Source: Candidatus Shapirobacteria bacterium S2_F12
Lineage (GTDB): Bacteria > Patescibacteriota > Microgenomatia > UBA12405
Direction: 5' to 3'
Assembly (NCBI GenBank): GCA_019248165.1
Contig: JAEHHB010000002.1
Span: 1 to 41,384, forward strand
Length of the DNA stretch: 41,384 nucleotides
Shown here: positions 9,077 through 41,384 of the stretch, piece after piece
Layout: each line of letters begins with the position of its first letter
How positions within the stretch are numbered: the stretch's first letter is position 1
Made by a program: the position numbers and the translations under genes
Notes under the pieces: generated by a model
What the model saw: only the letters and a program-made list of their open reading frames with translations
Told to the model about the DNA's origin: nothing
Databases searched by the model: none

Positions 9077-9505
9077 ATGCCAGAAAGACAAGGTATTGTC
9101 GGAATCATAATGCAGGATGTTAGTGGGGTTATGGATTTGGTTAAACAAAAAAATACTGGCCAGACGGATATTGATTTAAAAAGGGAAGAAGAGGTGGAAG
9201 CTAGGTTGGAAAATTTAAAAAAACACAATAGGGGCGATTTAGTTTCCTTAGAGCTTTTAAGTTACACCTTAGATCGAGACCCGAAAGTTAGAGAGGTGGC
9301 GTTAAAAGGGCTTCTTGATATGGATGGGAGTTTTTCGAGTATGTCTGTTATTAAACGAGTAGTTGATATGGGTATATTTATTGTAGAAACTGAAGACGGA
9401 GGGGAAGAAGTGGCGACAGCTAAAAAGTTGTTGAAAAACCACCTAAATGATGGTGATTTTTTTTATCCAATAAGTAGGGTAATCAATAAACCTATTGGTG
9501 CTTAA
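9077..9505 (+). CDS. Hypothetical protein
   Basis: 142-aa ORF immediately behind a good promoter. No family recognised. Confidence 0.45.
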
Positions 9506-10209
9506 TTGTCTAGGACTGTTAATTCTAATAGAATATCGTCAAGGTGCCCTTGCATTACTTCGTCAAGATTATTAAATGATTTATCGATTCTATGATCTTT
9601 GATTTGATTTCTGGGATAATTATAAGTGCGAATTTTGTCTGCCCTGGTAGACTGACTAATATTAGAGCGACCACCGGCAACCTGAACTGCTCTTTTTTCT
9701 TCTTCTATTTGCCACAATTTGTTTTGTAAAAGCTTTAGGGCGATTTCTCTATTTTTTTGTTGGTAACGTTCGGTTCTAACATCAAAAGTTAATCCTGTTG
9801 GCTTGTGAACTAAATGGACTGCAGTGGAAACCTTGTTTACGTTTTGACCTCCGTTACCGCCGGCACGGCAAGCAGTAATAACAACATCGTCCATACTAAA
9901 GTTTACTTCCTTTGATTCAATTTGGGGCATAATCGCAATAGAGGCTGTAGAAGTTTGAATTCTGCCTCTTTTTTCGGTAATTGGGATTCTTTGAACTCGG
10001 TGAGTACCGGCTTCATGCTTAAGTTGATTATAAGAATCAAACCCCGATATTTGAATAATCTGTTCGTCAATTTGGCTCACTTTCCAACCGACCTTGTTGG
10101 CATATCGAATATACATGTTCATTAGGTCATTTGACCAAATTGTAGCTTCTTGACCACCGGGACCCGGATAAAACTCCATGATGGCTATATTGGGATTAAC
10201 TGTGGGCAT
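9502..10209 (-). CDS. prfA: Peptide chain release factor, RF1-type, lacking N-terminal domain 1
   Basis: PxT-type codon-recognition motif ([14 protein letters not shown]) and GGQ motif ([12 protein letters not shown]). It is colinear with E. coli RF1 from roughly residue 110 to the C-terminus but is only 235 aa. Confidence 0.85.
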
Positions 10210-10249
10210 TGTTTGTGGTTATTAGTAAATAATAAAGTTAGTAGTAAAA

Positions 10250-10290
10250 ATAAAAACCGCCAAATTGTTAAAAATTAAAGCGGTTTTTTG
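10250..10290 (-). terminator. Hairpin with flanking A/T runs between rpmE and prfA
   Basis: AAAACCGC at 10253-10260 pairs with GCGGTTTT at 10280-10287. T-runs follow on both strands. Confidence 0.5.
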
Positions 10291-10295
10291 GGATA

Positions 10296-10559
10296 CTAGT
10301 TTGATTTTGTTGATTTTTTTTCTTTAGCCTTAATATCCTTAGCATCAGCTGTAGCCTTACCTTTGGCAACTTTTTCTTTAAATTTGTCTATTCTTCCTTT
10401 AATGTCGACAAATTTTTGTTGACCAGTAAAAAATGGGTGACACTTTGAACAAACGTCGACTTCAATTTTTTCGACAGTTGAACCGGTGGTAAACTTATTA
10501 CCACAAGCACAGCTAACTTGACAATCGCTGTAATATTTTGGATGAATTCCTTGTTTCAT
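10296..10559 (-). CDS. rpmE: 50S ribosomal protein L31 (Zn-ribbon form)
   Basis: [10 protein letters not shown] start and CxC...[10 protein letters not shown] motifs. Confidence 0.95.
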
Positions 10560-10566
10560 AAGGCTT

Positions 10567-10575
10567 ATTATAACA
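10567..10575 (-). promoter_or_regulatory. Extended -10 (TGTTATAAT on the minus strand) 7 nt upstream of the rpmE ATG
   Basis: The reverse complement of 10567-10575 reads TGTTATAAT. It is followed by AAGCCTT and then the ATG; there is no SD. Confidence 0.4.
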
Positions 10576-10667
10576 CATTAGGTCTGGTATTTTGTATCTG
10601 GTGTTAGGTATTTTGTAAGTTAATTATTTTTTAAATTAACAGCTTTTACCAAATTATTACTAAATTA

Positions 10668-14019: not shown

Positions 14020-15324
14020 ATGGAGGAAATTACTCGAATACCGCCTAATTCTGAAGAAGCAGAGTTGTCTGTATTGGGGTCGATACTAATTGATAATGAC
14101 GCTGTCTTGGCGGTATCAGAATTTTTGAGGTCAGAACATTTTTACAATTCAAACTATGGCAAGATTTATCAATCAATGATGGATCTTTATGAAGAAAGAA
14201 TGCCTCTTGATTTGATTACGGTTTCAGAAAAACTAAAAGAGCAAAAACTACTCAAAAAGGTTGGAGGAAAGAGTTTCTTGACTAAGTTAGCTGGAGAGGT
14301 CCCAACAGCGGCTAATGTTGAAAGTTACGGAAAAATAATAAAAGCCTTGTCTGCCAAACGGGAGTTAATATCAGCCGCAGGAAGAATTACTGAAAAGGCT
14401 TTTGATTCAACTTTGCCAGCAGACCAGTTGTTAGATGTTGCTGAACAAGAAATTTTTTCTTTGTCCCAAAAACATTTAAAATCAGTCCCAACTTCACTAA
14501 AAGATGTCTTAACTGCTAGTTTTGACCGACTTGATGAACTACAAAAGTTGGGAACTGGTTTGAGGGGGGTACCAACTGGATTTAAGGGTCTGGACAGTAT
14601 TTTAGCTGGTATGCAAGATAGTAACTTAATAATTTTAGCGGCTAGACCAGGCGTTGGTAAAACTGCTTTTGGATTAAATATTGCTCGATACGTAGCGGTA
14701 GAAAAAAAAATACCAGTGTGTATGTTCTCACTTGAAATGAGCAAAGAAGAGCTGGTTGATAGGTTGTTGGTGAGACAAGGAATGATTGATGCTTGGAAAT
14801 TAAAGACTGGGCAGTTGTCGTCTGGTGATTTTGATTCTTTGTCTGAAGCAATGGGAGTCTTGGCTGACGCTCCGCTGTTTATTGATGACACTCCTGGGTT
14901 AACAGTCACCGAATTAAGGACAAAAGCGCGACGGTTACAAGTTGACAAGGAAATAAAATTTATTGTGGTTGATTATTTACAGTTGATGCATGGAAGTACC
15001 CGGGACAATCGGGTTCAAGAGGTTTCGGAAATTTCTCAAGGATTGAAAAATTTAGCCAGAGAACTAAAAATCCCGATATTGGCATTGGCTCAATTGTCGA
15101 GGGCGATGGAGGCAAGGGGTGGTAAGCCTAGGTTGTCTGATTTGAGAGAGTCGGGGAGTATTGAACAAGATGCTGATGTGGTAATGTTTCTATATCGAGA
15201 AGACGAAGAAATTAGAGAAATGGTTACTTGTAGTATTGAAAAACACCGAAATGGTCCAACAAATAGTTTTAATTTGTATTTCAATGGTAAACAAGTCAGT
15301 TTCTTTGATATAGAAAAGAAATAA
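14020..15324 (+). CDS. dnaB: Replicative DNA helicase DnaB
   Basis: N-terminal PPNSEEAELSVLGSIL, Walker A ARPGVGKT, Walker B VVDYLQL and RELKIPILALAQLSR. Confidence 0.95.
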   Translation: MEEITRIPPNSEEAELSVLGSILIDNDAVLAVSEFLRSEHFYNSNYGKIYQSMMDLYEERMPLDLITVSEKLKEQKLLKKVGGKSFLTKLAGEVPTAANVESYGKIIKALSAKRELISAAGRITEKAFDSTLPADQLLDVAEQEIFSLSQKHLKSVPTSLKDVLTASFDRLDELQKLGTGLRGVPTGFKGLDSILAGMQDSNLIILAARPGVGKTAFGLNIARYVAVEKKIPVCMFSLEMSKEELVDRLLVRQGMIDAWKLKTGQLSSGDFDSLSEAMGVLADAPLFIDDTPGLTVTELRTKARRLQVDKEIKFIVVDYLQLMHGSTRDNRVQEVSEISQGLKNLARELKIPILALAQLSRAMEARGGKPRLSDLRESGSIEQDADVVMFLYREDEEIREMVTCSIEKHRNGPTNSFNLYFNGKQVSFFDIEKK

Positions 15325-15359
15325 AAAAAAGCCCCGGTTGGTTTTTACCCAAACGGGGC
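15323..15359 (-). terminator. Bidirectional intrinsic terminator shared by dnaB and the GC-rich gene
   Basis: GCCCCGGTTGG...CCAAACGGGGC hairpin at 15331-15359. The A8 run at 15323-15330 becomes a U8 tail on the minus strand. Confidence 0.7.
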
Positions 15360-15384
15360 GGAGTACAAGAGAGAGAAGAGAAGG

Positions 15385-16074
15385 TCATGAGGCAAATTGT
15401 TCAAAGGAGTTGACAGCTTCAAGGGCCATCTTTTCATTTGCTTTTGCCTCGGCGAGCTTGTCGAGTGCTTTTTGCACAGCACGTTGGGCAGTAACAACCT
15501 TTCGTGAAGCCTTTTTGGCGTCACTTTTCAAAGTGGCGATTGAGATTGCCGGTATGGTGGTCGTGTTGGGCAAGGGGGCGGGGATGTTTGGTTTGAGTGA
15601 ATCCAGGAGTTCCTGGAGTTCATTTTTGGAGATAATCCACCCTGTTTGTCCAGACGGGCTGTGTTTGTTGGGAATCGCTACTTGGTCATCATAGACAGGT
15701 GCGGCCCCGATAAAGCCATCCAGAATTTGAGTAATCGGATACTTTTTGGGGTCGGCGTGCAAAATGGGGATGATTTTTTCCAAATCATCATCTTTGACAT
15801 CGCACGGACCAGAAAAGTCCAGGTGACTGTCGTTGTGTCTGTCAGAGATGACACACAAAACGTCTTTGACTTTGTTTCCAGCGTTGTTGAGATGGGTTAC
15901 CAGCATGATAATGTCGTCGTTGGCATACAGCCTTCCGCCGCCGACAGAGACCAGATTGTCTTTGATTGCTTGGTTAACGACTCGTCCAGTTACGTGCACC
16001 CAGTGATTCGGATTGTAGGCCATGGACACGATGTCGTGGTTGTCGGCACATTTGATGATCGATCTTAAAAACAT
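15385..16074 (-). CDS. Orphan protein encoded in a GC-rich island: unknown N-terminal domain, Pro/Thr linker, Ala/Lys-rich C-terminal helix
   Basis: This is the longest frame in the island. I place the start at the ATG at 16074, which lies 9 nt after a strong SD (AGGAAGGGTGG), rather than at the TTG at 16119 in the ORF track. The terminator at 15323-15359 follows. Confidence 0.7.
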   Translation of the reverse strand: MFLRSIIKCADNHDIVSMAYNPNHWVHVTGRVVNQAIKDNLVSVGGGRLYANDDIIMLVTHLNNAGNKVKDVLCVISDRHNDSHLDFSGPCDVKDDDLEKIIPILHADPKKYPITQILDGFIGAAPVYDDQVAIPNKHSPSGQTGWIISKNELQELLDSLKPNIPAPLPNTTTIPAISIATLKSDAKKASRKVVTAQRAVQKALDKLAEAKANEKMALEAVNSFEQFAS

Positions 16075-16313
16075 TTCAAATACCACCCTTCCTAAATTAC
16101 TCTTCCAAAGAGCACTCAAAATATATACTTTTTATATATTCTAGGTGCTCCTTGGAAACTCTCTCTTTTATTTTAAAAGTACAAATTGAGTGATAAACAC
16201 CAAAGCATTTTTGGTTTTTATATCTCAATATAATTTATATATATCATAATATAGGATATATGTCAATGTATTTAGGTTCAAAGAATTAAAATAGAGGAGA
16301 AAGTTGGTTTTTG

Positions 16314-21792: not shown

Positions 21793-23553
21793 ATGAAAGA
21801 TAACACCAAAAATACCCTGAAATATTATTGGGGGGCAATGGCTAACCACAAAGTAACTGGATGGGTTCTGACTTTGGGGGTAATTTTTGGGGCAATATTA
21901 GATTCGGTTGTCCCGATATTGTCAAAAAATTTTTTCAATGTTTTGTACGACGGGGGAGTAAAAGATGTGGTTTTGATGAGGTTAATGCAAATATTAGTGT
22001 TTATCGCGATAATTAAATTTGTCCGTTGGTTGCTATGGCGAATTGCGTCTTTTACAATTAATTTTTTTGAATCTAGATCGATGGTTGATTTGAGCCGGCA
22101 ATGCTTTGACTATTTACAAAAACATTCTTTTTCGTATTTTTCAAATAATTTTCCTGGTTCAATTGTTAAAAAACACAAAAGTTTTATTAATACTTTTGAA
22201 TTTTTAATTGATCAATTGTTTTTTGAAATTATCCCCGGAGTCGTAAGTGTAATCGTAATGATTTTTGTTTTGGCCAAAGTAAACATATTTTTGGGGTGGG
22301 GCATGTTTGGTTGGATGGTTGTGTTTTTGTTGATTAATTGGTGGTTTACCAAATATAAACTAAAATTCGACATACAAAGGAGTGAGGCGGAAACGGCAAC
22401 GAGTGGATTATTGTCTGACACAATAAGTAATAACATTAACATAAAGTTGTTTAACGGGTATATTTATGAAAGCGATACTTATGGTAATTTGTCATTGAAT
22501 TTGCATAAAATAAGAAAGTTTACTTGGGATATGGGGGCGATTTTTTACGGATTTCAATCTTTTTTGATGTTGGTTCTTGAGGTGTTGATTTTGTATTTTT
22601 CTGTTAGATTGTGGCAAAGAGATATGTTAACTGTGGGAGACTTTGTCCTGATTCAGTCATATTTGTTTTCGGCGGTAATGTTGGTGTGGGATTTTGGCCG
22701 AGTAATGATGAAAATTTATGAACGTTTGGCTGATGCTGAAGAAATGACGGTAATTTTAAACCTTCCTCACCAAATAGTCGACTCTAATAATGCCAAAAAA
22801 CTGACAATAAGACGTGGTGAGGTGCGGTTTGAGAATGTGAGCTTTAAATATGAAGACGGAGATGATGTAGTAAAAAATTTAAATCTAACCATAAGTCCTG
22901 GACAAACAGTGGCATTGGTGGGGATGTCTGGTTCGGGTAAGTCAACTATAACAAAGTTGTTGCTGAGGCTTTATGATGTTACCAGTGGTCGGATTTTAGT
23001 TGATGGTAAGGATATAACCACCATAACTCAGGATAGTTTAAGAAAAAATATTAGTTTAGTCCCACAGGATCCGATATTATTTCATCGAAGTTTGATGGAG
23101 AATATTCGTTATGGTAAAGTTGACTCTTCCGATGAGGAGGTAATAAAGGCAGCTAAATTGGCATATTGTGACGAATTTATATCTAGGTTGAAAGATGGTT
23201 ACAATTCTACTGTTGGGGATAGGGGAATAAAATTGTCTGGTGGAGAGAGACAGAGAGTGGCGATTGCTAGGGCAATACTTAAAAATTCGCCGATATTGGT
23301 GTTGGACGAGGCGACTTCAAGTTTAGATTCTGAATCTGAGAAATATATCCAAAAATCATTAACTAATTTGATGAAAAACAAAACAGTTCTAATTATTGCT
23401 CATAGACTGTCGACAATTAAAAAAGCAGACAGAATAATAGTAATCTCAAAGAAAAAAATTGTTGAAGATGGTACTCATGCAGAATTAATTAATAACAAAA
23501 AGGGAATTTATCGCAAGCTTTGGGGTATACAGGTGGGTGGATTTATTAAGTAA
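21793..23553 (+). CDS. ABC exporter, fused permease/ATPase (MsbA-like)
   Basis: Six-TM N-terminal domain, Walker A GMSGSGKST, signature LSGGERQR and Walker B ILVLDEATS. Confidence 0.9.
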   Translation: MKDNTKNTLKYYWGAMANHKVTGWVLTLGVIFGAILDSVVPILSKNFFNVLYDGGVKDVVLMRLMQILVFIAIIKFVRWLLWRIASFTINFFESRSMVDLSRQCFDYLQKHSFSYFSNNFPGSIVKKHKSFINTFEFLIDQLFFEIIPGVVSVIVMIFVLAKVNIFLGWGMFGWMVVFLLINWWFTKYKLKFDIQRSEAETATSGLLSDTISNNINIKLFNGYIYESDTYGNLSLNLHKIRKFTWDMGAIFYGFQSFLMLVLEVLILYFSVRLWQRDMLTVGDFVLIQSYLFSAVMLVWDFGRVMMKIYERLADAEEMTVILNLPHQIVDSNNAKKLTIRRGEVRFENVSFKYEDGDDVVKNLNLTISPGQTVALVGMSGSGKSTITKLLLRLYDVTSGRILVDGKDITTITQDSLRKNISLVPQDPILFHRSLMENIRYGKVDSSDEEVIKAAKLAYCDEFISRLKDGYNSTVGDRGIKLSGGERQRVAIARAILKNSPILVLDEATSSLDSESEKYIQKSLTNLMKNKTVLIIAHRLSTIKKADRIIVISKKKIVEDGTHAELINNKKGIYRKLWGIQVGGFIK

Positions 23554-23596
23554 GTAGTAAGTAGTAAGTAGTAAGTAGTAAGTAGTAAGTAGTAAG
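23547..23596. repeat. Heptamer microsatellite (GTAGTAA) x6 plus one degenerate unit, beginning at the ABC-exporter stop codon
   Basis: Six perfect units at 23554-23595. The preceding TAAGTAA contains the TAA stop. Confidence 0.9.
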
Positions 23597-23788
23597 ATTT
23601 CTCCCTTTATAGGTAATAAAATTTATAATAAATGGGGAAGTCGAGGGTAGTTGGCGTAGTGCTTTCAAAACAGCCTAAAGTATTTATATAGATTGACAGT
23701 ATTAAACCTAATAAAGTTGATTTTGAAGCTAAATTAATTGGATTTAAGTATAAAAAAAAAGACTGGTGGTCTGTGAGGGAGGGGAGAG

Positions 23789-23842
23789 TCCTATAATATA
23801 CATCCTATAATAGTTTTCACGATATATCCTATAATTTTCACG
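23789..23842 (+). repeat. Three direct copies of TCCTATAAT; the last two are extended by TTTTCACG
   Basis: TCCTATAAT at 23789-97, 23803-11 and 23827-35. TTTTCACG at 23814-21 and 23835-42. Confidence 0.75.
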
Positions 23843-23864
23843 GTCAAAATTAATGATATACAAT

Positions 23865-23906
23865 GATATAGTCTCTGTGGATAAGTTTAGCTTTACAGAC
23901 TATATC
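23865..23906. repeat. 10-bp perfect inverted repeat GATATAGTCT / AGACTATATC whose loop carries a consensus DnaA-box 9-mer
   Basis: Arms at 23865-74 and 23897-906. TGTGGATAA (reverse complement of TTATCCACA) at 23876-84. Confidence 0.6.
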
Positions 23907-24224
23907 AAAGTGTACACATAGAGGAGTGGCAGAAGAGAGGGATAGGGGTCAATTTAATTACTAATTTCTAATTACTAATTATTAATTAAGACTAAATTAA
24001 CTTGACGGAACTTTAAAATATAACTATGTCTCCCTAGTGGTAGGTAAGTTAAAATATAATGTCGCACAATGTATCTTTTGCGACGTATATTACTTTTTGA
24101 ACGGAGGGGGGAAGTCGTTTGGGTGTTTTTATAAATTTGGTATTTTTTCTTTTTTATTGTGTCTTAGGTTTTTTCTATTTTTTGAATATTAAAAAAAATC
24201 AATATTTCTCTTCTTGGTCTTGAT

Positions 24225-24255
24225 TGCCTAATATTTTTAATTAGGCATATTTTTT
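24225..24255 (+). terminator. 8-7-8 palindrome TGCCTAAT-ATTTTTA-ATTAGGCA followed by TATTTTTT: a terminator-like hairpin or a recombinase core-type site
   Basis: Read directly from the sequence. No CDS lies upstream on this strand. Confidence 0.4.
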
Positions 24256-24263
24256 GGGACTTG

Positions 24264-24301
24264 ACTCCCCTATAGTGGTTTGTCTCCCCTGACCGTGGTT
24301 T
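24264..24301 (+). repeat. Tandem degenerate repeat (A/T)CTCCCCT-N3-4-GTGGTTT, two copies
   Basis: ACTCCCCTATAGTGGTTT at 24264-81 and GTCTCCCCTGACCGTGGTTT at 24282-301. Confidence 0.6.
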
Positions 24302-24461
24302 ACTGGTTTGACGGGTAATCATTATTTATAGATAAAATGATAAATATGCCTTAAAATAGGTATAAAATGTATGTGACGTCACTAAATGCCCTAGAAATGA
24401 TTTTAATATTTTTTGCGAATATTGTATCGTCTATTTTGATTTAATTAATCTAAGTATTAAG

Positions 24462-24470
24462 TGGTAATAT
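24462..24470 (+). promoter_or_regulatory. Extended -10 TGGTAATAT, 6 nt upstream of the recombinase ATG
   Basis: TGGTAATAT, then GGAAAT, then the ATG at 24477. No SD. Confidence 0.4.
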
Positions 24471-24476
24471 GGAAAT

Positions 24477-25409
24477 ATGGATAATGATTTACAATTGTTA
24501 AAAAGAAGATTTTTGGAACATCTAGAAATTGAAAAAAACTGCTCAAAATTAACAATCAGAAATTACGAACACTATTTAAGCACTTTTATAAAGTATTTAG
24601 GTGACAATGGGAAAACAAACCCGACAACTGAAGATCTTAATTCTGAAACAGTAAGAAAATTCAGATTATTTTTGTCTAGACAAAAAGGAACCAAAGGAGA
24701 AATGAAGTTGGTTACACAGGGGTATTATGTAATTTCAATAAGATCGTTTCTTAAGTGGTTAATAAAAAACGACATGAAAGTGTTACAGCCAGAGAAAATA
24801 GATGTACCAAAAAACAGAGATCATTCGTTAAAATTTTTGGATGGTCAACAAATTGAAAGACTTTTGAGCCAGCCGTTAAATTCTGCAAAAACAGGATTTA
24901 GAGATAGAGCTATTTTAGAGTTGTTGTTTTCGACGGGATTACGGGTGTCAGAGTTAGTGTCTCTTGACCGAGAACAAATTAACCTAAACACTAGGGAATT
25001 TGGAGTAATTGGAAAGGGGGGGAGGTCGAGAATTGTTTTTATTTCTCACCAGGCGGCTAGTTGGGTAGATAAATATATAAAATCTCGGTTAGACAAGCAT
25101 AAGCCACTCTTTATAAGAAATCTCAGGCCAAATGAAATTGTGTTAGAAGAGGAAAAGGTTAGACTTACTGCCAGGTCGGTTCAAAGAATGGTTAAAAAAT
25201 ATGTTCGTCAGGCAAACTTACCTGTTGCAGCTACACCTCACACTATTCGTCATTCAATGGCAACTGATTTGTTGTTGAATGGAGCGGATATTAGATCGGT
25301 ACAGGAAATTTTGGGTCACAAAAATATTGCGACAACCCAAATTTATACTCACGTAACCAATGCTAGACTGCGAGAAATTCACGAAAAATTTCATAGTGGA
25401 AATAAATAA
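24477..25409 (+). CDS. XerC/XerD-type tyrosine site-specific recombinase
   Basis: N-terminal SAM-like domain (LEHLEIEKNCSKLTIRNYEHYLSTF). Catalytic residues are present: GLRVSELVSL (Arg), HTIRHSMAT (HxxR) and LGHKNIATTQIYTHV (His/Tyr). Confidence 0.9.
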   Translation: MDNDLQLLKRRFLEHLEIEKNCSKLTIRNYEHYLSTFIKYLGDNGKTNPTTEDLNSETVRKFRLFLSRQKGTKGEMKLVTQGYYVISIRSFLKWLIKNDMKVLQPEKIDVPKNRDHSLKFLDGQQIERLLSQPLNSAKTGFRDRAILELLFSTGLRVSELVSLDREQINLNTREFGVIGKGGRSRIVFISHQAASWVDKYIKSRLDKHKPLFIRNLRPNEIVLEEEKVRLTARSVQRMVKKYVRQANLPVAATPHTIRHSMATDLLLNGADIRSVQEILGHKNIATTQIYTHVTNARLREIHEKFHSGNK

Positions 25410-25619
25410 GACCCCTCTCCCCTTCTGGATTTATAAAAAAAGTACATTGTCCTATAGTAGGGGTAATTTAATTAAGAAATAACACCGGGCATAGATTGTG
25501 TGTGGTCATTGATATGAGTAAAGATATTTTGTCCTATTTTAGGGATAAACTAGATTTTATTGACTTGTTAGCAATCTTATATATTGTCTGCTAATTTATA
25601 CTTATCAAATACACATTTC

Positions 25620-28328
25620 CTATAATGTCTTTGTTTGTGTTGACGGTTTTAGTTTGTTAGGCTCTACAGGTGGCTCAACACGGTCTGATGTCTCGGTATT
25701 TTTCTGTAAAATAGTCATAGCACTAAGTTTGTCGTCAGTTGATTTAAAGCGCATCAAAATTACCCCTTTTGTATTCCTTTTGAGTGTGGGAATGTTCTTA
25801 AGTGGGAGCTTAATGGTGACTGCTTTTTTGGAAACTAAGATCACTTGGTCATCGTTTTCTGAAACCACTTGGGCTGCAGCAATGTTTCCGGTTTTTGGTG
25901 TCAGATTGGCAACTTTTACTCCAATTCCTCCTCGTTTTTGGATTGGATATAGATAAACATCCGTTCTCTTACCAACTCCGTTTTCGGTTACACCAAGTAA
26001 GTGGCGAAAAGATTTTGCGTTTGTTTTGTCTTTTGCTTTTTCTATAGTTGAAGGAATTACGTCCATACTAACCAAATAATCATTTTCTTTTAATAAGATG
26101 CCCCTAACGCCTCGGGTGTGTCGACCCATAGCTCGAGCGTCTGATTCGTTGAAACGAATACATTTGCCGTTTTTAGTAACTAAAAATATTTGATTTTGAC
26201 CGTCGGTAAGTTTTGCCCAGGTTAATTGGTCATTTGGGTCTAGCTTTATTGCGGCTAAACCTGTTTGGCGAATATTCTTGAATTTATCAATTGAAGTTTT
26301 TTTGATAACTCCTTTTTTGGTGGCTAACAGAATAAATTTTGAGGTGCTTTCTTTGTTTATAGATAAAACCGTGTGAACAATTTCTCCTTGAAGGATATTT
26401 ATTAGGTTAACAATGGCTTGACCTTTGGCTTGCCGAGTCCCCTCTTGAATGTCCCAGACTTTAGTTTTGAAGACTCGTCCTTTGTTGGTGAAAAATAATA
26501 AATCATCGTGAGTATCGACGGATAGCATACATTCAATTTCGTCTTCGAGTTTGGTGGTCATACCAACAACCCCAATTCCACCTCGTTTTTGGGTGTGATA
26601 AGTGTCTTTTGGAACTCGTTTGATGTATCCAGTTTTTGTTAGTGCTACTAAAACAGCTTCGTTGGGGACAAGGTCTTCTTCGCTGAAATCTTCTAAACCT
26701 CTAATATATATTTTTGTTCGACGAGAATCACCATATTTTTCTGAAATTTCTTTGTTTTCTGATTTGAGGACGTTAATCATCTCGGATGATTTGGTCAAAA
26801 TTGACGTTAGATAGTTAATTGTGCTTTGGACTTGGTTAAATTCGTCGTCTAATTTTTGGCGTTCAAGTCCAGAGAGTTTGCGAAGTTGCATGTCTAAAAT
26901 GGCTTGGGCCTGGAGATCAGTAAATCCGTATTTCTCCATCAGTCGGGTTTTGGCGTCTTCATCAGGTTTGGTGGAACGAATTGTTTTTATAACTTCATCG
27001 ATAAAATCTAGGGCTTTCTTGAGACCTTCTAAAATATGGGATCTCATCATGGCGCCTTTTAGATCAAAAACCGTTCGGCGGCGAATAATGTTTTCTCGGT
27101 GGCGTAAGAACAAGAGTAACATTTGGCGTAAATTAAGGGTCTGAGGAACTCCGTTGACCAGTGCTAAAATGTTTGCTGAGTAAGATGACTGGAGAGCGGT
27201 GTATTTATAAAGTTTGTTAAGAATTGATTTGGGTTTACCGCTTTTTTTGATTTCAACCACCACACGAATACCATGTCTGTCTGATTCGTCACGAAGGTCG
27301 GAGATTCCAATTATTTTTTTATCTCGAACTAAATCGGCAATTTTTTTGACAAATTCGGCCTTGTTAACCTGATAAGGAAGTTCGGTGATGATAATTCTAA
27401 TTTTGCCAGATTTTGTTTCCTCAATATTAGTTTTACCTCGGACGGCAAATTTGCCCCGACCAGTGTTGTACATTTCTAATATTCCGGTTTTACCGTATAT
27501 TTCGCCGTATGTAGGAAAGTCTGGTCCTTGGATAACTTTGGTCAACTCGTCGATTGTAGCGTTGGTTTCAAAATTGTATTTTTGTTTTTCGATTTCATAT
27601 ACTGGGCGAAGAACCATTTCTTGGGTGTTTTTTGGGGCGGCAAGGAGGTTGTTGATTTCAATCTCTGGGTCAATTTTTTCAAGCTTACTTTTATCTAAAA
27701 TAATTTCAATAGCAGCACATAGTTCTTTTAAATTGTGCGGAGGGATTCTGGTAGCCATACCAACTGCGATACCATCTGCTCCATTCATCAAAAGGTTGGG
27801 TATTCGAGATGGTAAAACGGTGGGTTCTTGAATAGTGGCGTCAAAATTGTCCATCATATCAACTGTTTCTTTGTTGATATCAATAATCATCTCTTGAGAT
27901 ATTTTGTCCATTTTAACTTCGGTGTAACGCATGGCGGCTGGTGGGTCGCCATCGATTGAACCAAAGTTTCCTTGTCCTTTGACCAAAGGATAACGTAGGG
28001 AGAAATCTTGAGCCAAACGAACTAAAGCTCCATAAACTGATGAGTCACCGTGTGGGTGGTATTTACCTAATACCTCACCAACAACTTTGGCTGATTTAGT
28101 GTTTTTGCCACTACCAAGTCCCATTTGATCCATGGCATAAATTATCCGGCGATGAACCGGTTTAAGACCATCTCTGACATCAGGTAAAGCCCGAGAAACG
28201 ATAACAGACATGGCATAGTCTAAATATGACCTTTCCATCTCGGGAACAATATCAATCTCGATGACCTGGCCAATGTTAGTGTTTGTTCTGACGACGTCGG
28301 TGACGATTTTATTTTTTTCTTCAGCCAT
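25620..28328 (-). CDS. gyrA: DNA gyrase subunit A
   Basis: AAMRYTE active-site Tyr motif, GKYHPHGD, and C-terminal beta-pinwheel repeats. Confidence 0.97.
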
Positions 28329-32618: not shown

Positions 32619-33110
32619 TTATTTTTGATTTTGTTCTAAAAATAAACCGGCTTTGGTTATCGCTCTAAGCAAAAGATTGATTCTGTCTTCTGCTTCAAGC
32701 CTAGTAAGATTTTTATAATTATTTGGAAAATAATGGAATATTTCGTTGCGACCGAACTTCCAAGCGTCCCAAAGACTTTCAGCTAATTCTTCTCCTTTTG
32801 CATCAATCTCGGTGAGTCTTTGAAAAACAGAAAATCGTTTGTATCGAAGCGACGGGTTAAGGGTTTTGCCTACTCTAAAACGTTCGCTTTCAAAGTCTTC
32901 TTCGGTAATAATTTCTAGTTTTAAAAAGAATTCTTTTAAAAATCCTTCATACGCCTTGGCAATAGGAGATACTAAAAAAGAAAAATCACTAATAGGATCC
33001 TGAATTTGAAGTCGCTTTAAAATTATTTCGACATCGTTAACCAGTTCGTCTTGGTGACCAGAAAGATATTTTTTGGCTTGTAGGAAAAGTTCGGGGCTTG
33101 AGACCATCAT
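32619..33110 (-). CDS. Hypothetical all-alpha protein with an Rx4H (HEPN-like) motif
   Basis: WKFGRNEIFHY at residues 118-128 of 163. ATGA overlap with the upstream gene. Confidence 0.5.
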   Translation of the reverse strand: MMVSSPELFLQAKKYLSGHQDELVNDVEIILKRLQIQDPISDFSFLVSPIAKAYEGFLKEFFLKLEIITEEDFESERFRVGKTLNPSLRYKRFSVFQRLTEIDAKGEELAESLWDAWKFGRNEIFHYFPNNYKNLTRLEAEDRINLLLRAITKAGLFLEQNQK

Positions 33111-33670
33111 ATCTGTGAGTAAAAAAGTAGAAAAATAAAAATGATTAGAAAAAAAGTAAAAAAGGCCAAATATCGATTTAAAAATTTAGTCGGTAGTTGG
33201 GTTTCTTCTCGCGCAAATAACCATTTTTGGAGTATTTTGGGGTTGATAAAAAAATCAAGATATTCGTCGACTAGTAGGTGAAGATTTAATGAGACAACTA
33301 AACTAATTACAAATAAATTTGACGTTGAGGTGAAGATAAAAAAAGTAAACAAGACTAGAATTGATTGAAAAAAGTAATGGTGAAAAATTAAATTATGATG
33401 AGTTGAGTGGCTGGCATTGATTAGTTTAACAAGAGATTTTATGTCAAAATTTTTTATAGTAGTCTTGGCTAAACGGCTTTCTTCAATATTTGGTTTGAGG
33501 AAATACCAAAAGACTATGTGGTCAGTATCAAGAATAATTGAGCCGAACAATATACCAAAAAATGTCGCTAGTATGTGTGAGTTTGGTGATTTGGTAACAA
33601 TCAAAAAAAATGCCACCAAAAAAAACAAGATTGAAGATGCTAATAGATGATAACGGAATTCGTGTTTCAC
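33107..33670 (-). CDS. Membrane protein resembling the YdjM/DUF457 metal-dependent hydrolase family
   Basis: Multiple TM segments. His/Asp motifs: H8, LDTDH, SHSTHHNLIFHH. Confidence 0.45.
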   Translation of the reverse strand: MKHEFRYHLLASSILFFLVAFFLIVTKSPNSHILATFFGILFGSIILDTDHIVFWYFLKPNIEESRLAKTTIKNFDIKSLVKLINASHSTHHNLIFHHYFFQSILVLFTFFIFTSTSNLFVISLVVSLNLHLLVDEYLDFFINPKILQKWLFAREETQLPTKFLNRYLAFFTFFLIIFIFLLFYSQI

Positions 33671-40187: not shown

Positions 40188-41384
40188 TTAGACTGCTAAT
40201 TGGTTGAAGTCTGTTTCTGAAATAATTTTGGTACCAAATTTTTTGGCACTTATAAGCTTGGATGAATTTGATTGGATTTCGTTGGTAACTAGGTAATCAG
40301 TATTAGAGGTAACCGATGAGTTCAATTTCCCTCCAAGGGAAACAATTTTATCTTCGAGGGTTTTTCTAGGAACAGAGAGAGTACCTGTGATGGCGAAGCT
40401 CAACCCTTTTAGGGTTGAATTTCTAATTTCTAATTTCAAATTTATAACTAAAACTTGGGAAAGAATTGATTCAATAAAATGGCGGCGAGATTGGATACCT
40501 TGAAAGATTTTTTGGGCAAGGGTGATTTTTATCCCGGGCAATGATTCGAGTTGGGCGATGGTTATGTTAATTATCTTTTCGGGGGTATTAAAACCGGCGT
40601 TAATTAATTGAATAATTCTTTGAGTGCTAAAACTGGGAATTATGGCTGAGTCTAATATTTGTTTTAGAGTGAGTGATTTTTTAGCTTGAATCTCATGGAC
40701 AATGTTATTGCCTGATTTGGTTCCGAGGCCGGCGATGTTTTCGAAATCAGATACTGTGAGTTTGTAGAAGTCACCGGGTAATTTTACTAACCCTAATTTA
40801 TATAATTTAGAAATAGTTTTGTCAGAGATCCCTTTAATTTCTAGAGTGTCGCAAAATAGTTTTAAAGATCCTAATATTTGAGCTTCGCAATTTTGAAGGT
40901 TAGGACATTTCAAAAACTTGTTTTCTTGAATTAGTTTGGTGTGACATGAAGGACAATTGTTTGGTGTAAGAGCATGTCCAGGGGTGACTTTGTTAATCAC
41001 TCTTTCCACATGAGGAATAACATCGCCTCTTCTTTCGATTTCAACTATATCATTTAAGTTAATATTTTTTTCTTTGATTAAATCGTAATTGGCAAGTGAT
41101 GCATAGGTAATGATTGCTCCAGAAATTTCGACTGGATCGACTTGGGCAACAGGAGTAATGGTCCCCATAGGACCAACTTGCCAGTCAATGTTTATGATTC
41201 TAGTTTGACTAGAGCGAGCTGGAAATTTGTAAGCAACTTGACCTTTGGGGCGATTGTTTTTAGACCCCAGTTGAAATTGTAAATTGAGATCGTTAATTTT
41301 GATAACAAGTCCATCAATTTCAAACGGGTAATCCTGTCTTTTTTGATTTAAAAATTGCTGATAAACATTTTCAATTTCATCAAA
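40188..41384 (-). CDS. ligA: NAD-dependent DNA ligase LigA, C-terminal part (OB, Zn-finger, HhH, BRCT); the 5' end lies outside the window
   Basis: The frame stays open upstream of the listed Met to the window edge (...FEIDGLVIKINDL...). It has the C4 Zn finger CPSCHTKL...CPNLQNC, HhH repeats and a BRCT domain (FAITGTL). Confidence 0.95.
   Translation of the reverse strand, partial: FDEIENVYQQFLNQKRQDYPFEIDGLVIKINDLNLQFQLGSKNNRPKGQVAYKFPARSSQTRIINIDWQVGPMGTITPVAQVDPVEISGAIITYASLANYDLIKEKNINLNDIVEIERRGDVIPHVERVINKVTPGHALTPNNCPSCHTKLIQENKFLKCPNLQNCEAQILGSLKLFCDTLEIKGISDKTISKLYKLGLVKLPGDFYKLTVSDFENIAGLGTKSGNNIVHEIQAKKSLTLKQILDSAIIPSFSTQRIIQLINAGFNTPEKIINITIAQLESLPGIKITLAQKIFQGIQSRRHFIESILSQVLVINLKLEIRNSTLKGLSFAITGTLSVPRKTLEDKIVSLGGKLNSSVTSNTDYLVTNEIQSNSSKLISAKKFGTKIISETDFNQLAV

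Follow-up and report, generated by a model that had tools for sequence, protein, structure and literature searches.

The window analysed here is a stretch of 41,384 nucleotides from Candidatus Shapirobacteria bacterium S2_F12 (contig JAEHHB010000002.1), a housekeeping segment of a Shapirobacteria-like chromosome (Microgenomates) within the candidate phyla radiation (CPR), and it carries xer, a gene for a 310-aa tyrosine recombinase of the Xer family (24477..25409, + strand), between two non-coding gaps. Our comparison of the window with related loci indicates that this locus is probably a xer-dif module of a CPR chromosome, in which a 28-bp palindrome upstream of the gene would be the actual recombination site and a short polar DNA word would act as a guide of the type known as FtsK-orienting polar sequences (KOPS). 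An earlier reading of the letters (the first-pass annotation) had drawn attention to two families of short motifs around xer, in direct and inverted orientation, and had proposed them as sites of an invertible switch or small integrative element; one of these families is instead the polar word, and the palindrome had not been flagged. Taken as a whole, the locus resembles a system for unlinking chromosomes that has so far not been described in CPR bacteria.

The palindromic core and its linked recombinase

The dif-like core occupies 24059..24086 on the + strand, 391 nt upstream of xer, and is a 28-bp palindrome of 11-6-11 layout composed of a left arm, ATGTCGCACAA (24059-69), a spacer, TGTATC (24070-75), and a right arm, TTTTGCGACGT (24076-86). 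In an alignment of the upstream gap with about 27 related species, the conservation profile of its 923 nt reaches its maximum at this nearly invariant block. The core is present once in the 41-kb window, with 0 copies expected. Our comparison loci were chosen for carrying xer and comprise the local sequence around that gene, up to 24 kb per side; the core is single in 58 of 59 such loci of 13 kb, one locus having a weak second copy, and a best-match scan recovered it with at most 8 mismatches in about 58 of 80 related loci, as against 9-12 mismatches in shuffled loci. In these approximately 58 loci it lies invariably on the xer strand, at a distance of 44-3557 nt upstream of the gene. The core is present in the complete Microgenomates genomes CP055307.1 and OY970314.1. 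Arm sequence is conserved throughout the clade; the spacer keeps a length of 6 bp but differs in sequence (TGTATC, TAATAC, TATAAC, TGTAAC, TGACTG). More distant lineages have palindromic arms that co-vary, for example ATGTCGGATAA-TGGCAC-TTATCCGACAT, and all four base combinations are found at arm position 5, so that an RNA stem is not the conserved feature of the core.

The core is identical to E. coli dif at 17 of 28 positions. Bacterial dif is a 28-bp site in which two 11-bp, partly symmetric arms surround a spacer of 6-8 bp (11-6-11), and a location close to xer has been discussed as a possible hallmark of single-recombinase systems (PMC5357621). The genes found between core and xer in other lineages are ordinary ones, encoding a trehalase, an NT5C-type nucleotidase and a LytR_C-domain protein, and no cargo of the kind carried by integrative mobile elements exploiting Xer (IMEX) was found between core and xer in the relatives. 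The first-pass annotation had anticipated a cis-acting recombination site linked to xer, on the precedent of XerS/difSL and XerH/difH, and in this it was borne out; the motifs it nominated for the role, however, lack the shape of a core site, none being a pair of inverted arms separated by a 6-8 bp spacer.

The product of xer is predicted to be an intact XerD/XerA-like tyrosine recombinase with intact catalytic residues. Among the NCBIfam models it scores 250 bits against XerD (below the cutoff of 329.6), 245 against XerC and 223 against XerA_Arch (cutoff 220), XerA being the sole curated cutoff that the 310-aa protein passes; the XerS model yields 130 bits (cutoff 267), and integron integrases are likewise far lower. 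Pfam identifies Phage_integrase and SAM_1 domains. Among solved structures, E. coli XerD (1A0P, 8e-41) is nearest and XerA next, with alignment of the catalytic motifs, whereas the XerH structure is matched at 7.5e-11 only. Judged by these scores, the protein would fall outside both the XerS and the XerH clades.

Further evidence comes from mobile elements. A search of sequence collections with the pattern GTCGCACAATNNNNCTTTTRCGAC returned 33 IMG/VR viral contigs (L084-L116, G+C 0.30-0.50) that carry the 11-6-11 core, mostly with the spacer TATATC; in none of them is there a close xer, gyrA, flanking boxes or polar word. One contig (L096, 4197-5168) encodes a Zot-like ATPase, a hallmark of filamentous phages. 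Two others, L095 (2225, 7537) and L110 (2060, 7492), have a second copy of the core 5.3-5.4 kb from the first, with an identical left arm (L095) or one that differs at 1 base (L110), an identical spacer and a degenerate right arm, and these look like the trace that integration of an element at a dif-type site should leave. The parallel is with CTX-phi, VGJ-phi and other filamentous phages that act as IMEX at dif, and it lies in the shared core of the viral contigs, the Zot-like gene of one and the intact and hybrid sites of two; on the other hand, the core-bearing viral contigs are free of the CPR flanking boxes and nothing is integrated in the window. Because viral contigs carry the core, one with a Zot-like gene and two with an intact and a hybrid copy, they lend independent support to the core as a recombination substrate. 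Phage and plasmid collections were uninformative as to the host of the viral core, and L103 begins with a MurG-type host gene. In a metagenome scan with an N5-spaced pattern, a core variant with a 7-bp spacer was found 128 nt downstream of a distant tyrosine recombinase (L081, 348-2315, and L082) that is 25-31% identical to the Xer of the window and has a replication-initiation-O-like (RepO-like) gene next to it; this looks like a small plasmid- or phage-like element. Beyond that variant, the scan gave one probable chance match only.

A polar word that reverses at the core

Family 1 of the first-pass annotation has as its core CTCCCCT, the reverse complement of AGGGGAG, which is contained in an extended word, TAGGGGAGT. 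This family is a polar, KOPS-like word whose strand reverses at the palindrome independently of the coding strand. Across 53 non-redundant loci, AGGGGAG occurs on the + and − strands in a ratio of 95:1 to the left of the palindrome and of 4:86 at more than 1 kb to its right. Within genes, the raw +:− counts are 50:0 for + genes on the left (L+), 4:0 for − genes on the left (L−), 3:24 for + genes on the right (R+) and 2:44 for − genes on the right (R−). Two control words behave otherwise: the purine word GAAGAAG tracks the coding strand in all four classes (61:7 in L+, 1:13 in L−, 12:1 in R+, 15:106 in R−), and the G/T-rich word GGTTTGG favours the + strand in all four (79:1, 14:1 and 7:1, and merely 33:21 in R−). 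Because 13 of the 24 raw R+ matches share one conserved Ser-Pro-Leu codon position in xer, occurrences were collapsed to distinct peptide contexts, which leaves 25:0, 4:0, 3:9 and 2:28 distinct positions in the four classes, or 29:0 on the left and 5:37 on the right after collapsing orthologous positions. With these collapsed counts, L+ differs from R+ at p=1.8e-6 and L− from R− at p=3e-4, the corresponding control values being p=1 and 0.68.

The same word emerged from an unbiased scan that ranked heptamers by their preference for the + strand in L+ genes yet the − strand in R+ genes. Its top three words, TAGGGGA, GGGGAGT and AGGGGAG, overlap to give TAGGGGAGT, and the complement of this, ACTCCCCTA, matches exactly the conserved box at 24263-71. 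When the conserved boxes are left aside, 119 occurrences of the word point toward the core and 4 away from it (96.7%), at a density of 1 per 4.6 kb, approximately 6-fold over the expectation from composition. For L. lactis, candidate KOPS were required to have a skew of at least 90% and at least 1 motif per 40 kb in the dif region (PMC3384302); the skew and density found here lie above both thresholds. In lineages whose xer is 1.2-2.2 kb from the palindrome, the interval in which the strand switches (about −315 to +202) brackets the palindrome and not xer. The switch is apparent even in the window alone, where GGGGAG occurs 8:0 on the left and 1:10 on the right of the core (p=1.2e-4).

The copies of family 1 listed by the first-pass annotation can be placed in this pattern: those at 23780 (+) and at 24265, 24284 and 25417 (−) are instances of a clade-wide polar word converging on the core, as the strand switch at the core implies. 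The leftmost (23780..23786, +), pointing to the core, lies inside GGGAGGGGAGAG (23777-88) and is found at about −270 in most Shapirobacteria-like loci. On the other side, the copy at 24263..24271 reads ACTCCCCTA on the + strand and TAGGGGAGT on the − strand, again pointing to the core, and is kept at about +204 across the clade; it agrees with the word from the unbiased scan. A second, tandem copy (24284..24290, −; CTCCCCT on +) belongs to the repeat proposed at 24282-301, which is real, yet a tandem duplicate limited to the window and its close relatives. The copy that follows the xer stop codon (25415..25423, −; CTCTCCCCT on + and AGGGGAGAG on −) has a − strand counterpart at about +1300 to +1400 in most Shapirobacteria-like loci. 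A supposed weaker copy at 23599-617 is unconserved and looks like a product of chance.

The enrichment of family 1 at the locus proved genuine. The two gaps flanking xer (1133 nt together) contain CTCCCC 4 times, against 2 times in the 4446 nt that make up the rest of the window's intergenic DNA (p=0.018), and the composite CTCCC-N2-8-GTGGT (3 copies) is absent from the remainder of the 41 kb. A case within a coding sequence is xer itself in Woesebacteria-type loci (L038-L055), in which the template strand carries the polar word at about codon 28, where the protein has the conserved Ser-Pro-Leu of KGxSPLTIR (tCT-CCC-CTn). Thirteen lineages keep exactly these codons even though their proteins are 50-58% identical to the Xer of the window, which suggests selection on the nucleotide word; the window xer has Ser-Lys-Leu at this position and no polar word.

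Alternative explanations and replication polarity

If the locus is a xer-dif module, recombinase protomers would bind both core arms on sister chromosomes, and strand exchange across the 6-bp spacer would resolve chromosome dimers. The polar word would be read by an FtsK-type directional DNA translocase, which would be driven to the core from both sides and help to assemble or activate the synapse there, and the conserved copies of the word located no more than 300 bp from the core or just past xer would serve as the last guide or loading sites. Several findings weigh against this scheme. There is no FtsK gene among the genes of the 41-kb window, and the XerD segment RQLHQQ, which we take to hold the FtsK-contact residues, is not conserved in the Xer of the window, where it reads REIHEK. 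In the R+ class, the collapsed count by itself is just 3:9. A G-box, GGAGGGGGGAAG (24103..24114, +; AGGGGAG in most relatives), lies 18 nt past the right arm and is fixed at +45/+46 in 15 loci, and it is the sole conserved copy of the polar word that points away from the core; it is found in Shapirobacteria-like loci and a few other lineages and is absent in Woesebacteria-type loci. Finally, when the G/C skew of third codon positions (GC3 skew) is read on the + strand, it amounts to +0.39 to the left of the core, in both gene orientations, and to +0.41 to the right; in 54 of 56 loci its sign agrees between the two sides, and there is no switch within −24/+17 kb of the core.

The last of these points bears on the location of the site. 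Bacterial dif normally tracks the skew shift point to within about 5% of genome length (PMC3025954). Because the GC3 skew is the same on both sides, the core is not at a shift point within −24/+17 kb, although an offset of up to 5% of genome length could conceivably separate the two. A step in raw GC skew at 25 kb was considered as a replication signal and set aside when codon-position analysis showed that it is merely a flip of the coding strand. Gene orientation and the polar word, which is family 1 itself, invert at the core, whereas replication-type mutational skew does not, at least within −24/+17 kb; the first-pass annotation's suggestion that skew might place the locus at the terminus was, in its plain form, not upheld.

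A genuine Xer core might coexist with a polar word that serves some other strand-specific process, such as a Chi-like signal or a site for a nucleoid-organising protein, in place of an FtsK-type translocase. We regard this as unlikely, while granting it more weight than the other alternatives. In its favour, what the counts establish is the polarity of the word and not the identity of its reader, FtsK is absent from the window and the FtsK-contact segment of XerD is altered, and archaea are known that have short polar words directed toward dif but no FtsK (PMC2958812). A Chi-like signal, however, should follow the replication skew, which does not flip at the core, and the inversion found here is anchored on the Xer site to within about 250 bp, such anchoring being the defining property of KOPS-type motifs (PMC3384302). 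Less probable again is that the gap represents a replication origin or another locus under DnaA control, a reading to which a perfect DnaA-box 9-mer (TGTGGATAA at 23876, conserved as TGTGGAWAA), an AT-rich stretch (24126-24255), repeated short boxes and the proximity of dnaB, dnaX, gyrA and gyrB might all lend themselves. Genes converge on the gap and do not diverge from it, and the GC3 skew has no sign change, for which reasons an origin is improbable; moreover, a single DnaA-box-like word is present, and dnaA and dnaN are absent from the window.

The length and conservation of the non-coding region, its GGGGAG and CTCCCC boxes, which could potentially pair, and its small hairpins would also fit a large structured RNA whose helices are formed by the G-rich and C-rich boxes, yet this we consider very improbable. 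Rfam has no match in the gap either at the gathering threshold or at E=10, and scans for tRNA and tmRNA found nothing there. RNAalifold, applied to 28 homologous gaps, returned an energy of −9 kcal/mol for 745 columns, the covariation term being −0.35 and the predicted pairs falling in invariant columns; in the hairpin at 23857-23914 the left arm is invariant while the right arm drifts uncompensated; and both the free variation at core arm position 5 and the CCTATAAT boxes, which flip orientation between lineages, speak against conserved helices. The reading offered by the first-pass annotation, that the two motif families are recombination sites of an invertible switch or of a small excisable or integrative element, now seems the least probable of all. 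The motifs do lie on both sides of xer, direct and inverted, and are enriched at the locus, but they lack the inverted arms of a core site, and family 1 is found also inside genes across the region as an oriented word. A second copy of the core was not found in the window, and the orientation of the module and the synteny of xer with the convergent gyrA are constant in more than 30 species (50-96% protein identity), so that inversion or excision is unsupported. The first-pass annotation had asked whether the block between the ABC exporter and gyrA is present or absent as a unit in related genomes; in the loci compared, all of them selected for xer, a switch is countered by the single core in one orientation in all relatives, and an integrative element by the conserved housekeeping synteny and the ordinary genes between core and xer.

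Returning to the xer-dif module, the mismatch between its polarity and the GC3 skew permits a further, tentative reading, namely that the Microgenomates have uncoupled the polarity of segregation, as expressed in the dif-like site, the polarity of TAGGGGAGT and the orientation of the genes, from that of replication; this is possible, though we hold it to be doubtful. On the right side, the polar word opposes the G3-rich strand in the local sequence. All 13 genes to the right of xer (13/13; gyrA, gyrB, pth, ligA and others) have coding strands poor in G at third positions (GC3 skew about −0.41), as against +0.39 for + genes on the left. By the usual rule, the essential genes on this side, a block of 16 kb or more, would lie on the lagging strand, an arrangement kept in relatives. 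If the uncoupling is true, the xer-dif module would lie within a replichore, where forks traversing it would meet gyrA, gyrB and at least 11 other genes head-on, and it would be the recombination site, in place of the leading strand, to which the polar word is anchored. Strongly asymmetric replichores, an unusual mode of replication or dimer resolution without a need for location at the terminus would then have to be considered, and the lineage would offer a natural system in which KOPS-type selection is separated from replication-associated skew.

Flanking boxes, genomic setting and known Xer systems

Around the core and xer lies a second layer of conserved sequence, which includes family 2 of the first-pass annotation. 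Its enrichment is likewise locus-specific: the 1133 nt of flanking gaps hold CCTATA[AG]T 6 times and the remaining 4446 nt of intergenic DNA once (Fisher p=4e-4), TCCTATAAT (4 copies) is absent from the remainder of the 41 kb, and neither family has a similar density in intergenic DNA elsewhere in the window. In Shapirobacteria-like loci, 113 of 121 occurrences of CCTATA[AG]T fall into two clusters, one 0-500 nt to the left of the core and the other just downstream of xer. The strings quoted by the first-pass annotation are all present, at their reported places or within 1 base of them (CCTATAGTGG, for example, is at 24269-78 instead of 24268-77), and its identities of 14/17 between 25447-63 and 25529-45 and of 11/12 between the inverted copy at 24349-60 and 25533-44 are correct. 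Several of its family 2 copies exist as described and are better understood as short palindromes, CCTA-N3-4-TAGG. Copies conserved in about 27 species comprise 23777-91, three of TCCTATAAT, 24029-44, 24261-71, 24349-60, 25415-23, 25451-61, 25531-45 and 25618-26.

A cluster of boxes (23789..23884, +) is nearly invariant in Shapirobacteria-like loci and contains TCCTATAAT three times (23789, 23803, 23827), TTTTCACG twice (23814, 23835), TGATATA twice (23854, 23864) and the DnaA-box-like 9-mer noted above (23876). TTTTCAC and TGATATAG, in two copies each, and TGTGGAWAA are found 150-550 nt to the left of the core in all Microgenomates lineages. At 24029..24044, 15 nt to the left of the core, is a small palindrome or hairpin, TCTCCCTAGTGGTAGG (CCTA/TAGG), whose stem (24033-44) co-varies between lineages as CCTA/TAGG, CCCC/GGGG or CTCCC/GGGAG. 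Two palindromes upstream of xer (24348..24382), GCCTTAAAATAGGT (24348-61) and GTGACGTCAC (24373-82), are conserved in the alignment and mark a candidate promoter or operator region. The gap between xer and gyrA, compared among about 24 relatives, has conserved boxes at 25451..25626, namely CCTATAGTAGG (25451-61), CCTATTTTAGG (25533-43), an inverted repeat TTAGCA...TGCTAA (25568-94) and CCTATAAT (25619-26).

Family 2 copies (CCTATAAT) differ between lineages in number and orientation. The possibility that they are generic −10 promoter boxes was rejected, as CCTATA[AG]T is near-absent from other intergenic regions and its orientation flips between lineages; the flips therefore argue against −10 boxes, as against RNA, and for protein-binding boxes. 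Family 2, TTTTCAC, TGATATAG, TGTGGAWAA and the small palindromes accordingly look like conserved protein-binding sites, and by analogy could be accessory or architectural sequences of the module or serve in the control of expression.

The genomic setting is one of housekeeping genes. To the left of xer are dnaX, recR, cysS, ssb, dnaB, pta and an ABC exporter, and to the right, in order, gyrA, gyrB, a SpoU methylase gene, a MacB/ABC/HlyD exporter, pth and ligA; genes are mostly on the + strand up to 25409 and exclusively on the − strand from 25620 onward. At 23549-23596 the heptanucleotide AGTAAGT is repeated perfectly in tandem, 6.9 times, across the stop codon of the ABC exporter, and the first 30 nt of the upstream gap, inside this repeat, did not align with the closest relative (L001). 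Several other features of the window are recorded here. A release-factor gene (9502-10667; PCRF and RF-1 domains) is just 235 aa long and begins mid-domain, and it is followed by a 458-nt 'intergenic' stretch; the N-terminal part may lie there in a different frame, on the pattern of prfB with its programmed +1 frameshift. The reading frame of ligA (40188-41168) starts within the OB-fold domain and has no adenylation domain, and this gene, near the end of the window, may be split, frameshifted or interrupted. The bin 15001-16000 has 45% G+C in a genome of 33-35% and overlaps an open reading frame of 244 aa with a TTG start (15385-16119, −), which adjoins a tRNA-Leu gene and has no Pfam or Rfam match. 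Two small overlapping genes at 32619-33670 (−), one with a weak, sub-threshold match to an RnaseLS-like HEPN domain, may form a toxin-antitoxin-like pair.

Among described systems, XerCD/dif with FtsK/KOPS of E. coli and most bacteria shares with this locus a 28-bp site in which inverted arms of 11 bp enclose a 6-bp spacer, recombinases that are the nearest matches to the one here (XerD and XerC) and a G-rich polar word that inverts at the site with more than 90% skew. It differs in that the locus here shows one xer gene only, linked to the site, with nearly palindromic arms, a word that is TAGGGGAGT and not GGGNAGGG, a site that in the local sequence is off the point where GC skew shifts, and no conserved RQLHQQ segment. 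XerS/difSL of streptococci and lactococci and XerH/difH of Helicobacter and Campylobacter likewise combine a single recombinase and its site in one module, and FtsK of L. lactis is guided by a polar heptamer peculiar to the lineage, GAAGAAG. The Xer described here, however, has 310 aa and is XerD/XerA-like, whereas members of the XerS/XerH clade have about 355 aa; the spacer of difSL is 11 bp as against 6 bp; XerS/difSL is at the terminus; and the site here lies 0.04-3.6 kb upstream of xer.

Archaeal XerA/dif resembles the module in its single recombinase (the XerA model is passed at 223 vs 220 bits), its near-palindromic 11-6-11 site, the conserved sequences and inverted repeats that flank dif, the closeness of crenarchaeal dif to xerA and the short polar words toward dif (PMC2958812). 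The flanks and inverted repeats in which archaeal dif is embedded have been proposed to bind a partner protein (PMC2958812). The host here, by contrast, is a bacterium, the XerD score is higher (250 bits), and the word is a 7-9-mer where the archaeal one is a 4-mer. Plasmid cer and psi, which have accessory sequences, offer another parallel, in that a Xer core has a few hundred bp of conserved, protein-binding sequence on one side, which by analogy could impose selectivity on resolution without location at the terminus; the present locus is chromosomal, and no sites of the ArgR, PepA or ArcA type were recognised in it. The system thus appears to work like dif/Xer with a KOPS-type guide, its apparent novelty with respect to XerCD/dif lying in the linked single gene, the near-palindromic arms, the new word and the lack of a skew switch at the site, and with respect to XerS/XerH in the predicted recombinase clade and the spacer length.

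We found no paper on Xer/dif, on these arm sequences or on this word in CPR/Patescibacteria, nor one that describes chromosome dimer resolution in these bacteria, which make up a large share of bacterial diversity. The 28-bp candidate dif could anchor genome orientation and assembly checks in uncultured CPR genomes, and TAGGGGAGT is a candidate guide word for the DNA translocase of the lineage, with the flanking boxes as possible accessory sites. The core on putative filamentous-phage contigs points to mobile elements that exploit Xer, and the mismatch between word polarity and GC3 skew, if genome-wide, would bear on whether KOPS-type skew is selected for segregation or follows replication.

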